Position numbers and translations under genes: made by a program. Positions 1 through 23,036 of a stretch of DNA of 23,036 nucleotides are shown here, one piece after another. This stretch comes from a virus. The notes beneath the pieces were generated by a model that saw nothing but the letters and a program-made list of their open reading frames with translations, was not told the DNA's origin and made no database searches. The stretch lies in the IMG/VR virus record IMGVR_UViG_3300045988_079349, one strand, 5' to 3'. How positions within the stretch are numbered: the stretch's first letter is position 1; every line of letters starts with the position of its first letter.

Positions 1-37
1 AAAGTGTACTTTTTTAAAAATGAAAGGAGAAATTTTC

Positions 38-679
38 ATGGAATGTATTTTAACTGGATAGGTTAAGAACAAAGATGCCATTACTGTGCCGGGCGGTGGT
101 ATTGCAGAAATGGGAGAATCTTTGGGAGTTGGACCTTACACTATCAAATTTGATGAAGAAGAAAATGAAAGTCTAACTGCATCGTTGATAGAGTATAACA
201 ATAGCACCTCGAGCATGGCCGCTACCAATGTTTAGGAGGCCATAGATGAACTTTTTACAGATGTCAGTGAGGGCAAAACCCTAATAGCGACCGCAGTCAC
301 TGACAAGGGAATAGAAACTGCGGCGACCGATAGCTTTCAATAGATGGCAGAAAATATAAGTCAAATTGAGACTGAAACTCCAATAGAAACAGTAGATATT
401 ACATTTGAATCATTATCAGGCGTAAGTGGATGCACAGTAATAATAGAACATGAAAATGCACCAATGTCAGTATGGGTAGTGTAGAAAAATAATTATAAAG
501 TAATAAAAAATAGTATTTTAACTATAAACGGCGGCTCTTCTTCAGGACTTAAAATTACTCCTTAGTCTGCATACAAAGCATTAGGTGCTATACAGATAAA
601 TAATAATAGTCAAGTTATAGCATATAAAATTATTGACTCTGCTACAATTACTTCTGGCGGTGGTGGAAGTAGTAATTAA
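38..679 (+). CDS. Phage structural protein, tail-fibre-like, with NVQEAIDELF-type motif and C-terminal Gly/Ser tail. 213 codons read with 5 in-frame TAG (at 59, 233, 341, 482, 563) taken as sense; ends TAA at 677. May start upstream of the window, since there is no in-frame stop in 1-37.
   Basis: SD aaaggaga at 23-30 and ATG at 38. Single continuous frame if TAG=Gln. The NVQ-E-A-I-D-E-L motif is typical of phage fibre and receptor-binding proteins. Confidence 0.5.
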
Positions 680-700
680 AATTTAGGAGGTAAATATATT

Positions 701-1108
701 ATGATTAAAATAAATGGTAAGAAAGTAGCCGGAATAGGTCAGCCCGGTCTCAATGGAAAGTCTGCTTATGAAACAGCTAAAGAAGGAGGGTTTACTGGAA
801 CTGAACAAGAATTTAATGAAATTTTAGCAAATACAGCTCTTAAACCGAAGGCTATACTTATTGCTATTCTTGAATCTGAATGGTCTGATGACACCTGCAC
901 AGTAATGGTTCCAGGTGTACTCGCAGATGAAAGCAAATAGCTAATTTATGTAATGCCAACTATTGAATCTCAAGAAGTATATTTTAATGCTGGGATATTA
1001 TGTATTAATCAAGGATTGGATGAATTAACTTTTAAAGCATTAATAACTCCAACTGATAGTATACGACTGTATATTATTTTATAGGAGGTAGTAGAAAATG
1101 ATTTTTAA
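701..1108 (+). CDS. Small tail-fibre-like protein (GKSAYETAKEGGFTGTEQEF motif). The ORF track stops at TAG 938; reading TAG as sense extends it through TAG 1082 to TAA 1106.
   Basis: SD taggaggtaaat upstream of ATG 701. The SAYE..GF.GTE motif is a common N-terminal signature of phage tail-fibre proteins. The extension past 938 is inferred from the recoding seen elsewhere in the window. Confidence 0.45.
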
Positions 1109-1349
1109 TTCAAGCGCTCAAACGGAAAGATATTCTATAATAGATAAGTCAGGCTTTAAATATGAATTCCCATTAAGAGCATCTCCAGGAGAGATAGTTT
1201 ATAGTGGTAAAAATATATCTCCAGGTATTTCAGATTCTTTTTATTTATTAGAGGATGGAAGTTCCGTGGATTATTCATTTGGACAAGGCAAAATGTATTT
1301 TGTTATGCCCAAAGGTAATGTTTTAATTGCAAGAGATTATCCCTGGTAA
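1098..1349 (+). CDS. Hypothetical protein, 83 aa, no TAG, ends TAA.
   Basis: SD taggaggta at 1082-1090 and ATG at 1098. No family recognised. Confidence 0.4.
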   Translation: MIFNSSAQTERYSIIDKSGFKYEFPLRASPGEIVYSGKNISPGISDSFYLLEDGSSVDYSFGQGKMYFVMPKGNVLIARDYPW

Positions 1350-1403
1350 TTTTCACTTTCTTTATATATTATATAATAAAATTTTATATAAATCAAAACG
1401 CCG

Positions 1404-1432
1404 AATTGCCAAATTTTTGGGCAATTTTTGTT
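1404..1432 (+). terminator. Hairpin aattgcc-N9-ggcaatt followed by a T-run, an intrinsic-terminator-like element after the fibre gene block. A TTGCCA...TTTCATATA promoter-like element follows at 1441-1462.
   Basis: Inverted repeat plus tttttg seen directly. A related motif recurs at 2585-2640. Confidence 0.4.
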
Positions 1433-20147: not shown

Positions 20148-21243
20148 AAGGGATTATCCTTTCGTTTAATAGCTTCTCAAAGATTTGCGGCCCTCTATCT
20201 ATAGGACTTGCTTTATATGGCAAAATCATTCCTTTATCAAATATAGCTGATATACGAACATTTTTACTATATTTATTATAAATATGAATTAGTTTTGCTT
20301 TTAATCTCTTAAATTCATCATCGCTAATCTCAACAAATTGTCTATCAAAAGCAATTATAATTTCATTAACTCCTAAAGACCTAAGTAAATCTATATGATA
20401 GCTAGATACACTACTTCCGCAACAAGCCACAGATATATCATTATCATACCCATAATAAGACTGATACATAAGACAGCTTTTTTCTGATTCAAATATAATT
20501 GCGGCTTTCACCTTTTTTATATTTTCTTTACTATGGTTTAAATTATACAAATTCATGCTCAAAGGATGATTGTATAACTGTCTATTTACCATAAGAGGTC
20601 TATATTTACCATATCTTTCTGCATCCTCAGAAGATAATGTTCTCCCTCTTATTCCAACTAATCTATTATCAATATCGAAATGAGGAATTGTTATTTGCCC
20701 TCCGCCAGGATAGTAACCAATAAAATTTCTTCTATTAACTTCTGGTAAAATTCCCTCAGCTTCCCATCCTGAAATTCTAGGATAGGCAAAACGAGTAAGA
20801 ATAATTGGATTATATTCTTTCAAAGAAATAGGTTGTTTGGACTTTGGAAGTTGAATATTATGCCTTCTAAATATATCCCAATCTTCTAATTCTTCTTTTT
20901 CATCTTCTAATTCTACTCCGTTGAAGCCAAAGTATCCTGCTATATAATCCATAGCATTATACAATTCCCATTTCTTATCTTCTTGCTTTTTTTTAACCTT
21001 TATACATAGGTCAAATATATCAAAAGTAGGATCTATGCATCCAGTATAGCACCTAAAAAGTTTTGTATTTTCGTAATAATATAACTTTCTTGATCCTTCA
21101 CCGGGAAGATTATGACATATAGTTTGGGAGATGAGCCCGCCATCTACATATTCAGGCTCACCACCCCACGCTTCGAGTAAATCATAAATTTGTTCTAATT
21201 CAAGTTTACTCTTTAACTCATCTTTATCATAGTATCTTGACAT
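20140..21243 (-). CDS. dnaG: DnaG-like DNA primase (CHC2 zinc finger plus TOPRIM), 367 aa, no TAG.
   Basis: CHNLPGEGSRKLYYYENTKLFRCYTGC (CHC2 zinc finger). TOPRIM-like acidic motifs AIIFESEKS and IIIAFDRQ. Confidence 0.8.
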   Translation of the reverse strand: MSRYYDKDELKSKLELEQIYDLLEAWGGEPEYVDGGLISQTICHNLPGEGSRKLYYYENTKLFRCYTGCIDPTFDIFDLCIKVKKKQEDKKWELYNAMDYIAGYFGFNGVELEDEKEELEDWDIFRRHNIQLPKSKQPISLKEYNPIILTRFAYPRISGWEAEGILPEVNRRNFIGYYPGGGQITIPHFDIDNRLVGIRGRTLSSEDAERYGKYRPLMVNRQLYNHPLSMNLYNLNHSKENIKKVKAAIIFESEKSCLMYQSYYGYDNDISVACCGSSVSSYHIDLLRSLGVNEIIIAFDRQFVEISDDEFKRLKAKLIHIYNKYSKNVRISAIFDKGMILPYKASPIDRGPQIFEKLLNERIIPYE

Positions 21244-21245
21244 AA

Positions 21246-21422
21246 TTAAGCATCATAGAAAGATACTTTATTTACTGTTTCTTTCAAGCCAAATTGCTCA
21301 TTGATAATTTGTATCACATAAACATAAGGATTCTGTTTCTTTTCTTCCTCTGTTCTGCTTGAAAGAAGCTCATTAAACATTTTCTTGCTCATTCTGTACT
21401 CTAAACCTTGACTATTCTTCAT
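21246..21422 (-). CDS. Hypothetical small protein, about 58 aa (start at ATG 21420-21422, which has a GGAGGA SD).
   Basis: The ORF-track start is a TTG; the ATG with strong SD lies 27 nt further in. Confidence 0.4.
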   Translation of the reverse strand: MKNSQGLEYRMSKKMFNELLSSRTEEEKKQNPYVYVIQIINEQFGLKETVNKVSFYDA

Positions 21423-21436
21423 TATATATTCCTCCA

Positions 21437-22975
21437 TTATTTTTCCCAAGCTGCTGGCCCTTCATCGACAATTACTCGAATATCTTCAATGCCCACCATC
21501 TCATGTCTCCAATTAGTACAAAATTGTGGTAAAATTCTACAAGTTCCTAAGTTAGCAGAACACCATAGATATACTCCTTTGTACGAACCTCGTCTATTTT
21601 TATAGATAGATAATTTTAGATTCGGACGCAATAAGTTCTTGTTACCCTCTAGTATTGGATCTAACTTAACTAAGTCCTCATCTGTAACACTTAGTAGAAT
21701 CATGCCAACGTCTATTCTATCGGCTATACTTTTTGCGCCTCTTAATAGATTTTGATCTGGCGTTTCACTACTCTAATAATCGGCGTTTAATTGAGTTGCA
21801 GACATGATAAATACACCATATTTATTAGCTAAATCTTTCAATCTAGCGGAGAGCATAAATAAGATATTATCCTCTCTTAATCTAACTCCCCCAGACTTCT
21901 TACTAATTTCTTCAAGAATTTTAAGCGACGTTTGAAGATAGTCGAAAAGAACATATTTAACTTCATTTTCTCTAATATTCTTTTTTATTTTATTCTCTAC
22001 ATCTTGTAAAGAAAAATCTGGTAATTCTTCTATCCAAATTGGACTGCGTTTAATTATTTCTGCGGCCTTTAGCACCCTCTCTTTTTCACCCTCAAAGTAT
22101 TGACCGTTAAGGATATGTTCTTCATCTACGTCAGATAGGAAAGCTAACATCATTGTTTGAACTTCGCTTTTATCTTGCTCTGTGGCAATAAACAAAGTTG
22201 GTTGAGAGGTTCCATTTTTAATCCATCCAAATTGGTCATGATAGATTTCATTGCACGCAAAATTACACGCATCCGCTATCATAGATCTAGTTTTACCGGT
22301 TCCCGTAGCCGCCGACCGCAAATAAAATTTTCGCAATCTTGCTCCTCTTGTTACTGTATTAATTAACGGGCCATATAGTGGAATACCAACTTCGGGATGC
22401 TGTTCTAAATCACTAATAAGTTCATTGATTCCGTCTCCGGCTTGATAGCCTAATCCAAGATCATCTTCTATGTACTTACTTTTGATTTCATCTATTTTTG
22501 TATCAATAGCATGAGCTATTTCAACTAAGCTAGTATTATCCAGCCAATCTTCTTGCATTTGGCGTTTTTTGGTATCGAGAATATTATTTGGATCATAAAG
22601 ATAGCTAACATCAAGACCAAAATTGCTATATGCTCTTAACAAAGTAAACTTCTTTAATCTATTATAATAATAATTAAAAGTATCTTGCCTTGCACTTTGC
22701 GATGCTTCAAGGAGATATTCTACACCCTTGTTTTGCTTAAATATGGCGTCAAACTTTGGTCTGTTTGCTAGATAATCTATAATCGCGTCTATATTAACTT
22801 GACTACCTGTTAGATGGATATTATAGATACTACCGAAAATTATCTTATGAAAATCTTCTTGGAAGTCATCTTCATGAATTATATACTTATCTGTATCATC
22901 AAGAATAGAAGCATTATTGAATACACATCCAATTACCTAAGTAATCGCCGCTGTATCTATATAATTACTCTTCAT
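21437..22975 (-). CDS. dnaB: DnaB-like replicative DNA helicase, about 512 aa. ORFs 21773..22642 and 21437..21703 are joined across TAG 21773 and extended upstream across TAG 22937 to ATG 22973-22975.
   Basis: Walker A SAATGTGKT, Walker B VLFDYLQ, and SATQLNADY-Q-SSETPDQNLLRGAKSIADRIDVGMILLS matching the DnaB SQLNR...RESG.IEQDAD region. Upstream extension AAITQVIGCVF resembles the DnaB N-terminal domain. SD GAGGAGG 6 nt before the ATG. Confidence 0.85.
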
Positions 22976-23036
22976 GCGCTTCCTCCTCATTTAAGAAAGT
23001 AAATAGCTTTCGTATATGTTTCATTGGTTGCCGTTG

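Follow-up and report, generated by a model that had tools for sequence, protein, structure and literature searches.

Evidence for glutamine at in-frame TAG codons in an SPbeta-like phage lineage of the human gut

How are genes to be read on a stretch of phage DNA in which TAG stands inside many reading frames and ends none of them? The question is raised by IMG/VR virus record IMGVR_UViG_3300045988_079349, a stretch of 23,036 bases with a G+C content of 34% that was analysed at its full length and is called the window below. The explanation that we favor, and consider very probable when all its steps are taken jointly, is that the window derives from an SPbeta-like phage of ~133-147 kb that infects Firmicutes of the human gut and would decode UAG as glutamine (Gln; NCBI table 15), with the charging of a suppressor tRNA and the gating of late functions as inferred parts of the same account.

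Genes were called as stop-to-stop open reading frames (ORFs) with only TAA and TGA as stops, and starts were then assigned from the Shine-Dalgarno context. The 28 genes obtained with TAG as a sense codon cover 94.5% of the window, most of them preceded by AGGAGG-type Shine-Dalgarno sites, with 11 on the plus strand (38-5656) and 17 on the minus strand (5676-22975). In-frame TAG occurs 62 times, spread over 18 of the 28 genes, in keeping with the "at least 60" of an initial annotation made from the sequence, whose counts for individual genes were also reproduced except in the RecJ-like gene, where there are 13 rather than 12. The terminator is TAA in 21 genes, TGA in the other 7 and TAG in none, again as that annotation had claimed. 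The coding frames, 7254 codons in total, contain no TAA and no TGA while TAG is present at 8.5 per 1000 codons; in the other two frames, TAA, TGA and TAG each occur at 16-52 per 1000. The genes are as follows, with TAG positions in brackets and lengths in amino acids (aa).

38-679 (+): g01, tail-fibre-like protein, 213 aa, phrog_26419 (tail fiber); 5 TAG (codons from 59, 233, 341, 482, 563), stop TAA
701-1108 (+): g02, small fibre-region protein, 135 aa; 2 TAG (938, 1082), stop TAA
1098-1349 (+): g03, 83 aa; no TAG, stop TAA
1476-2099 (+): g04, small serine recombinase (Sin/Bin3-type resolvase/invertase), 207 aa; 5 TAG (1584, 1707, 1839, 1902, 2061), stop TAA
2151-2540 (+): g05, holin, 129 aa, phrog_13712 (E 1.5e-33, residues 5-127); 2 TAG (2178, 2391), stop TGA
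2679-3104 (+): g06, Gln-rich protein, 141 aa, phrog_21718; 8 TAG (2715, 2724, 2775, 2781, 2901, 3045, 3057, 3072), stop TAA
3117-3350 (+): g07, small protein, 77 aa; 4 TAG (3129, 3156, 3195, 3243), stop TAA
3375-4280 (+): g08, Gly/Cys-rich protein, 301 aa, phrog_16490; 2 TAG (3750, 3936), stop TAA
4310-4732 (+): g09, 140 aa, phrog_20016; 1 TAG (4682), stop TAA
4735-5337 (+): g10, Tyr/Arg-rich protein, 200 aa; 1 TAG (4786), stop TAA
5330-5656 (+): g11, M78-like peptidase domain protein, 108 aa; no TAG
5676-6107 (-): g12, 143 aa; 1 TAG (codon 5727-5729), stop TAA
6178-6657 (-): g13, RuvC-like resolvase, 159 aa, RuvC profile 2-148 of 148; 7 TAG (first bases on the minus strand 6633, 6498, 6459, 6432, 6297, 6198, 6192), stop TAA
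6654-7220 (-): g14, dUTPase; no TAG
7222-7464 (-): g15; no TAG
7466-7732 (-): g16; no TAG
7729-8073 (-): g17; no TAG
8110-8652 (-): g18, formate/nitrite-transporter-like membrane protein, 180 aa, Form_Nir_trans; 1 TAG (8526), stop TAA
8649-9122 (-): g19, NrdG activase, 157 aa; 2 TAG (8765, 8672), stop TGA, with TAG151 in GSRN-TAG-K
9119-11299 (-): g20, NrdD anaerobic ribonucleotide reductase, 726 aa; no TAG (31 CAA/CAG)
11366-11917 (-): g21, guanylate kinase, 183 aa; 3 TAG (11548, 11533, 11428), stop TAA
11886-15788 (-): g22, DnaE-type polymerase (YorL-like), 1300 aa; 1 TAG (13010), stop TGA
15831-17006 (-): g23, RecD/Dda-like SF1 helicase, 391 aa; 2 TAG (16346, 15962), stop TAA, with TAG349 in motif VI
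17298-18065 (-): g24, Phage_lysozyme2-like secreted protein, 255 aa; no TAG
18105-19856 (-): g25, RecJ-like exonuclease (YorK-like), 583 aa, TTG start; 13 TAG (19826, 19781, 19766, 19646, 19175, 19166, 19109, 19013, 18881, 18833, 18623, 18512, 18122), stop TAA
19863-20147 (-): g26, 94 aa; no TAG
20140-21243 (-): g27, primase (YorJ-like), 367 aa; no TAG
21437-22975 (-): g28, DnaB-type helicase (YorI-like), 512 aa; 2 TAG (22939, 21775), stop TAA

The TTG start of g25 at 19856 is supported by the alignment with SPbeta YorK, which starts at residue 1. The product of g04, initially described as a serine recombinase, does fall in the resolvase family, but it is of the small Sin/Bin3 type and gives no evidence of being an integrase.

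Frame continuity across TAG

Greedy non-overlapping tiling covered 75.6% of the window under code 11, and coverage rose to 95.9% once TAG was taken as sense, a comparison of the kind that the initial annotation had suggested. Treating TGA as sense instead gave 75.0%; treating TAA as sense gave 81.5%, but with 17 strand switches, which mark this tiling as spurious. Coding potential was calculated from codon usage, trained only on the ten TAG-free genes and scored for TAGs with at least 10 downstream codons, and downstream of all 56 testable TAGs the same frame keeps the highest value. Pfam matches run across the TAGs over nearly entire models, for example Resolvase (2-144 of 145), RuvC (2-148 of 148) and Fer4_12 (4-137 of 137), and TAGs are likewise spanned by Radical_SAM, Guanylate_kin, AAA_30 and UvrD_C_2, DHH, DHHA1 and RecJ_OB, DnaB and DnaB_C, and Form_Nir_trans, while the PHROG holin family match runs over both TAGs of g05. 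No frameshift was found in the 7254 codons of the 28 genes, and identical TAGs were found again in independent assemblies of different samples.

If TAG were still a stop codon, the interrupted genes would be pseudogenes of a decaying element or the products of sequencing or assembly errors. It is true that 18 of the 28 genes are broken under the standard code, and that one public annotation presents them as fragments: the JGI standard-code calls on a contig that is 100% identical over nine genes (L009) cut DnaE into 926 + 366 aa, the RecJ-like gene into four pieces and DnaB into 289 + 88 aa. These calls bear out the earlier warning that a standard-code annotation would be largely wrong; the ENA and Logan gene calls for this phage already read through the TAGs. 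Decay or error is contradicted by the absence of in-frame TAA, TGA and frameshifts, the last of which the initial annotation had not seen either, by the coding potential that stays in frame past every testable TAG, by the recurrence of identical TAGs, and by exact matches to the NrdD and primase proteins in over 1600 blocks of a public assembly collection, on contigs of up to phage-genome size. It is also contradicted by the specific exchange of TAG with Gln codons and by the co-inheritance of a tRNA with the anticodon CUA, both described below, and we therefore give this explanation practically no chance.

The amino acid at TAG and the CUA tRNA

Databases that already translate TAG as Q would make a comparison of proteins circular, and therefore codons were compared directly, by aligning the ORFs of 31 related loci to the window proteins with X at every TAG. 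In relatives that are ~99% and ~90% identical, the window's TAG sites are either still TAG or changed (n = 25), and the changed codons are CAA (14), CAG (6), AAA (2), ACT (1), GAA (1) and TCT (1), without any TGG, TAT/TAC, TAA or TGA. Gln codons thus make up 20 of the 25 changes, the dominance that had been anticipated for an alignment check. CAA, which is two steps from TAG, is more frequent than CAG, which is one step away, and therefore the pattern would reflect selection on the amino acid rather than mutational proximity. In the reverse comparison, the TAGs of the relatives are mainly opposite CAA/CAG in the window. For example, relatives have CAA, CAG or ACT at three TAG sites of g01 and CAG/CAA at three sites of g04, some strains have CAG at both sites of g08 and at the single site of g09, and the lone TAG of DnaE and TAG13 of DnaB are CAA/CAG in relatives.

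A likelihood test over the 20 amino acids, with substitution tables derived from the same alignments, ranked Gln first in all four representatives, which are not independent, with leads over the runner-up of ~11, 5.5, 34 and 38 nats. Summed, Gln is ~100 nats ahead of Lys, the second best.

Several single sites are informative in their own right. TAG151 of NrdG lies in the GSxNQ motif, and the aligned residue is Q in 62 of 62 homologues without TAG at the site (taken from a genome-collection search with NrdD), two further relatives having TAG, and the codon is CAA in the 90% relative; the conserved Gln that the initial annotation had recognized at GSRN-TAG-K is therefore invariant in this set. 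An alignment of NrdG to the PDB ended short of the C-terminal motif. RecD2 (3e1s) and 9kwf both have the Q of SF1 motif VI where the helicase has TAG349 (HRA-TAG-GSQW), as had likewise been proposed, and the poly-Gln run PQQ-TAG-QP-TAG-Y is indeed present in g06. In addition, TAG37 of the recombinase g04 aligns to the Q of EKQSGK in Sin, and SPbeta has Q at positions 71 and 326 of the RecJ-like protein and at position 13 of DnaB (YorI).

A search for tRNA genes in the window and in the first ~60 kb of adjoining sequence found none. The nearest relative, IMG/VR contig 3300045988_075249 (132,915 bp), has orthologues of g19-g28 that are 98.6% identical to those of the window, and a tRNA with the anticodon CUA, for which a search beyond the window had been recommended, is encoded on it in an array ~34 kb past the DnaB end of the window:

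L190:3232-3306, equal to L289:12782-12856 (contig 3300045988_075249): tRNA(CUA), Rfam tRNA model 60 bits

This tRNA folds into a canonical cloverleaf with a 5-nt variable loop and G73, has its own putative promoter, and is followed, 9 nt after the CCA, by a Shine-Dalgarno site and ATG. The array comprises 16 tRNAs, including Gln-UUG and Gln-CUG, together with a tmRNA and a ROOL RNA. The tRNA(CUA) was also found in the ~90% and ~63% relatives, and 12 contigs from human-gut metagenomes, of which three measure 143-148 kb, share an exact 42-mer with it. We consider the assignment of TAG to Gln in this phage to be supported, in terms of sequence comparison, by the codon exchanges, the likelihood test, the invariant Gln sites and the CUA tRNA of the nearest relative taken together, as the initial annotation had proposed.

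Six distinct versions of the CUA tRNA (L190, L191, L192/L193, L196, L211 and L256) all combine a Y1.U72 mismatch with G73, and such tRNAs occur in relatives down to ~53% protein identity. The tRNA-Gln genes of the family have a weak A-U/U-A 1-72 pair and G73, and its Gly, Lys, Tyr and Leu tRNAs have G1-C72 and a different discriminator. Overall similarity, tried as a guide to the isotype, does not decide between Gln, Trp and Lys; the acceptor stem is nearly the same as that of a relative's tRNA-Gln(UUG), and the anticodon and T arms resemble tRNA-Trp. The CUA tRNA has U35, A37, G10, G73 and an unpaired 1-72, and in identity work on the E. coli glutaminyl-tRNA synthetase (GlnRS), U35, A37, G10, G73 and an opened 1-72 favor charging with Gln, whatever the ancestor of the tRNA. 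The conserved unpaired 1-72 might be an identity switch to the Gln pathway. E. coli has Gln-inserting amber suppressors with a CUA anticodon derived both from tRNA-Gln (supE) and from tRNA-Trp (su7); what steers a tRNA to GlnRS is the combination of a CUA anticodon with its U35, of G73 and of a 1-72 pair that is weak or broken. The phage tRNA resembles these suppressors in U35, G73 and the broken 1-72 pair, but it is phage-encoded and would act genome-wide rather than on rare nonsense mutations, and in a Firmicute possibly without GlnRS.

Alternatively, TAG might be sense for another residue, such as Trp, Lys, Glu, Tyr or pyrrolysine. ARAGORN labels the CUA tRNA "tRNA-Pyl", which is its name for any CUA tRNA, the anticodon and T arms are like those of phage tRNA-Trp, the overall identity to Lys-CUU is 0.70, Lys came second in the likelihood test, and K, E, S or T stands opposite many TAG sites in more distant homologues. 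By contrast, close relatives have no TGG, TAT or TAC at TAG sites and mostly CAA/CAG, the summed likelihood separates Gln widely from Lys, and the Q of the NrdG and helicase motifs does not vary. Further, its cloverleaf with a 5-nt variable loop and G73 sets the CUA tRNA apart from tRNA-Lys (A73), from the Tyr, Leu and Ser tRNAs with their long arm, and from pylT. As for pyrrolysine, no pyl genes were noted in any locus, with ~108 kb of the relative's genome covered, the tRNA scores 60 bits on the general model, and TAG exchanges with Gln codons. A residue other than Gln is therefore highly unlikely.

Elsewhere in the family, the syntenic array of some other recoded relatives has no CUA tRNA. 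A CUA tRNA in this array was rejected as a clean correlate of recoding, since relatives without it still have in-frame TAGs. The CUA tRNA of L211 has a long extra arm and a total length of 91 nt, and that of L256 has an odd T loop in common with the tRNA-Gln(UUG) of its family. The tmRNA of the array (L289:199-5316 region of 3300045988_075249, ~40 kb from the window) scores 120 bits and has the tag peptide DNDYFENYLAA, and the ROOL RNA, full length at 350 bits (L289:3977-4572), lies between tRNA-Gln(UUG) and tRNA-Gln(CUG). Adjoining the array is a TAG-free block (L189:6612-10561, contig 075249 ~28.7-35 kb) that appears RNA/tRNA-repair-like by motifs read by eye, with a 424-aa RNA-ligase-like protein, a 295-aa Thg1-like protein, a P-loop kinase, several metallophosphoesterases and a nucleotidyltransferase. 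No Rfam match to an HDV-like or theta ribozyme was found beside the suppressor tRNA.

Uneven use of TAG, late gating and the code of the host

In the window, TAG accounts for 62 of 318 Gln-type codons, equal to CAG, and its use differs strongly between genes (chi-square 85, 27 df, a value reached by none of 20,000 permutations). TAG makes up 13 of 25 Gln-type codons in the RecJ-like gene, 7 of 12 in RuvC and 8 of 18 in g06, and only 0 of 31 in NrdD, 1 of 48 in DnaE and 0 of 10 in the primase. In the genome of the nearest relative, 50-79% of the Gln codons of tail genes are TAG, with 102 TAGs in the 2899 aa of the tape measure protein, and the tail loci gain in coding coverage, from 35-40% to 93-97%, once TAG is taken as sense. 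In the same genome, gyrase A and B, ligase, NrdD, primase and the tRNA-repair/phosphoesterase block by the tRNA array have no TAG at all. A GIY-YIG endonuclease gene uses TAG for 11 of its 19 Gln-type codons, and homing endonucleases were found to be strongly recoded in other code-15 phages (bioRxiv 10.1101/2021.08.26.457843).

Borges et al. read such a pattern as a gate that delays late or lytic proteins until the suppressor is made (bioRxiv 10.1101/2021.08.26.457843), and the uneven use of TAG seen here, with structural and lysis genes enriched in TAG and a subset of genes free of it, fits this model as far as codon distribution goes. In the mechanism that we propose, the CUA tRNA would be charged with Gln by a host enzyme, as the E. 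coli GlnRS and amber-suppressor identity work suggests, and, once abundant, it would out-compete the host release factor RF1 at UAG. TAG-free genes (NrdD, gyrase, ligase, primase, dUTPase and the neighbors of the tRNA array) would be translatable by a naive host, while TAG-rich genes (tail, fibre, holin, RuvC, RecJ-like and homing endonuclease genes) would give full-length protein only after the suppressor has built up, and the code change would act as a timing gate for late functions.

Several points weigh against this account. On average, TAG sites are less well conserved than CAA/CAG sites; in a 58% relative, Q is found at 35% of the former vs. 52% of the latter. The ancestry of the CUA tRNA is ambiguous, with identities of 0.69 to Gln-UUG, 0.68 to Trp and 0.70 to Lys-CUU. 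There is no tRNA within the window, and the suppressor is linked to it via a 98-99% identical relative rather than via the window's own contig. We infer the charging with Gln from the identity elements, and many Firmicutes have no GlnRS and form Gln-tRNA by transamidation. A search for factors that target RF1, suggested in the initial annotation, came out negative, with no release factor or RF1 antagonist in ~108 kb of the 133-kb relative, and a regular expression for the GGQ motif of class-I release factors gave one unrelated match only over all loci. Moreover, several replication genes are rich in TAG, and the split between early and late genes is not clean. The timing gate would have the codon distribution as its sole basis.

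A related possibility is that UAG is decoded ambiguously, by termination as well as by Gln, and that the number of TAGs in a gene is a dosage dial for its full-length yield instead of a late switch. This would be consistent with the lack of an RF1 inhibitor in the same ~108 kb, with a preference of TAG sites for less conserved positions, and with a modest enrichment of A at +4 after TAG in the relative's genome (39% vs. 28% after CAA/CAG, p = 0.006), which is not significant in the window. A at +4 has long been known as a context that favors amber suppression. However, a tape measure with 102 TAGs would have no useful yield unless read-through at each site is close to 100%, and we regard ambiguous decoding as improbable.

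It could also be argued that the host itself reads TAG as Gln and that the phage merely matches the code of its host, as code-25 and code-4 phages do. No reliable host was obtained from the genome-collection search with NrdD, neither RF2 nor an RF1 antagonist was found in the ~108 kb, and TAG is never a stop in the window, all of which would agree with such a host. However, a code shared with the host would not require TAG to be used unevenly or long genes to avoid it entirely, the phage has a CUA tRNA of its own, and relatives differ in the TAG load of their orthologous replication genes (0 to 8.5 per 1000 codons). No bacterium is known to use code 15. Code-15 phages are predicted to infect hosts with the standard code (bioRxiv 10.1101/2021.08.26.457843). 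Because of the TAG-free gene block and the phage-borne suppressor, a host-matched code is very unlikely.

Lineage, comparison with known phages, and accessory elements

A megablast search of the window against 50,697 GenBank phage records gave no match. By protein, the nearest phages are Enterococcus phages VRE9/EF1 and Bacillus SPbeta, with primase and DnaE 37-40% identical, and the gene order of the replication module, yorF-yorG-yorH-yorI-yorJ-yorK-yorL, is kept as in SPbeta. Since these nearest phages are only 37-40% identical at the protein level and phAss-1, another recoded phage, is no closer, the window phage is a distinct SPbeta-like lineage, and it is abundant in human-gut data. It falls outside the genus Spbetavirus (threshold ~70% nucleotide relatedness), with proteins 36-40% identical and only the order of the replication module in common, and outside the proposed genus Phassvirus (>~70% intergenomic similarity and synteny with phAss-1), with no nucleotide match and a DnaE 37.7% identical. 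In exact-protein look-ups, which covered TAG-free genes only, NrdD, the primase and g03 were each found in the public assembly collection in 1600-1750 blocks (1691 for g03), on contigs of up to 98-147 kb.

The low G+C and the strong ribosome-binding sites (AGGAGG) are suggestive of a host among the Firmicutes. Most matches of the NrdD search of genome collections were bacterial nrdD genes or phage contigs that had been binned into metagenome-assembled genomes (MAGs) of many phyla. Phage-size contigs (L083, L097) were binned in MAGs of Eubacterium and Oscillospiraceae, which is weak as evidence for a host.

Code-15 phages, their usual machinery and their gene-class bias are already well described (bioRxiv 10.1101/2021.08.26.457843; PMC9523058; PMC10607447), and for crAss-like phages Gln at TAG was proven by proteomics (Peters et al., PMC9523058). 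The window phage resembles the code-15 gut phages (crAss-like, Lak, Garnet, Topaz and part of Agate; bioRxiv 10.1101/2021.08.26.457843) in having in-frame TAG opposite Gln and a phage-borne CUA tRNA, in the heavy recoding of structural and lysis genes, the variable recoding of replication genes and the strong recoding of homing endonucleases, in TAG loads that differ between close relatives, and in that an aminoacyl-tRNA synthetase or release factor was not found in most of those genomes. By contrast, it belongs to another lineage with an SPbeta-type replication module, and the integrases of Garnet and Topaz avoid TAG whereas g04 has five, although g04 is of the resolvase/invertase type, so that the comparison may not apply. 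The genome size of 133-147 kb and the Firmicute-like signals would be compatible with the Agate clade, but membership of the clades is defined by a tree of the terminase TerL (bioRxiv 10.1101/2021.08.26.457843).

phAss-1 of the proposed Phassvirus (Babkin et al. 2023, PMC10607447; OQ749652), which groups near Spbetavirus and Enterococcus phage EF1, is likewise a siphovirus-type phage of the human gut of ~136 kb. Its genes likewise include a DnaE-type polymerase, NrdG, holin, dUTPase and a tape measure of ~3000 aa, TAG is read as Gln, and tRNA-Sup(CTA) genes are part of a large tRNA set that comes without a dedicated synthetase. However, it has no nucleotide match to the window, and its DnaE is 37.7% identical to that of the window, compared with 39.7% for SPbeta. 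The phAss-1 group has 2-3 CUA tRNAs among 28-36 tRNAs, in contrast to one seen among 16 in the window lineage, and the dUTPase of phAss-1 is recoded, whereas that of the window is TAG-free. SPbeta (SPBc2, NC_001884) and Enterococcus phages EF1/VRE9 share with the window phage the collinear module of yorF, yorG (AAA_24), yorH, yorI (DnaB), yorJ (primase), yorK (RecJ-like) and yorL (DnaE), replication proteins that are 36-40% identical and a similar genome size. They differ in using the standard code without in-frame TAG, and SPbeta has no tRNA array. A large serine integrase of the SprA type was not seen in the portions of the window phage that were read.

Among relatives, the TAG load of the same replication genes takes values of 0, 2.1, 4.9, 7.6 and 8.5 per 1000 codons, and no TAG stop was found among the terminators checked in the 99%, 90% and 63% relatives. 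In some relatives, these genes have neither sense TAG nor TAG stops: the replication modules of L020 and L030 (~58% relatives, contigs of 131-188 kb; 23-24 genes) look as if TAG had been vacated there and not reassigned. The 58% relatives were dropped as a standard-code outgroup, because they also lack TAG stops and some of them gain from tiling with TAG as sense, and were kept only as TAG-free orthologues. Since the window lineage and phAss-1 are no closer to each other than to standard-code SPbeta, and since the TAG load climbs stepwise in the same genes, code 15 might have been acquired independently within SPbeta-like phages, and the family might be a natural series of a stop codon vacated and then recaptured, a scenario that is possible but rather doubtful.

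Standard-code annotation breaks 18 of the 28 window genes and nearly all tail genes of this very widespread gut phage. As a result, homologies would go unnoticed, too many proteins would be counted as hypothetical, and predictions of host and function would be distorted. The finding leaves the known workings of such recoding unchanged, and recoding-aware gene callers already handle the element. With this phage, the code-15 phages gain a second, distant lineage of the SPbeta-like kind, and the graded TAG loads within one family are material for studying how a reassignment spreads through a genome.

Several features vary between strains. The fibre genes g01-g03 (window 38-1349) are swapped for unrelated or very divergent genes in L003, L004 and L005, which are otherwise 97-99% identical, for example for a 225-aa DUF4376 protein and a 321-aa protein (g02 and g03 of L005 are 65% and 59% identical), which looks like cassette exchange at the receptor-binding end. 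Some strains have an extra gene for a 221-aa GIY-YIG endonuclease between dUTPase and RuvC (L003-L005:14720-15385), a position at which the window (g14/g13, ~6654) has no such gene. In several relatives, NrdD matches residues 1-414 only or is lengthened, which suggests insertions of introns or inteins. After the holin gene, the window carries a run of small genes (g06-g10, 2679-5337) with PHROG matches of unknown function only or none, among which g08 has CCC motifs and g10 is rich in Tyr, Arg and Asp.

Directly left of window position 1, and thus outside the window, lies a diversity-generating retroelement (DGR; L110:4622-8494) with a reverse transcriptase of 405 aa (RVT_1), an accessory gene of 164 aa and a target gene of 545 aa (Big_3 / DUF6273). 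Its template repeat (L110:6148-6249) and its variable repeat at the 3' end of the target gene (L110:6871-6972) differ at 19 positions, all 19 at template adenines on the coding strand. A 21-nt inverted repeat (90% complementary; window 42-62 and L110:8596-8616) flanks a 328-bp region between the DGR target gene and g01, ~1.5 kb from the recombinase g04. This region could be an invertible promoter; its orientation was the same in 8 of 8 assemblies checked, with no sign of switching. Finally, the phage is also found on contigs of ~290 kb (NODE_11_length_290702 and NODE_11_length_293444 in ENA; L005, L006, L011, L112), about twice the usual 143-148 kb, which could be concatemer assemblies or include a linked second element.

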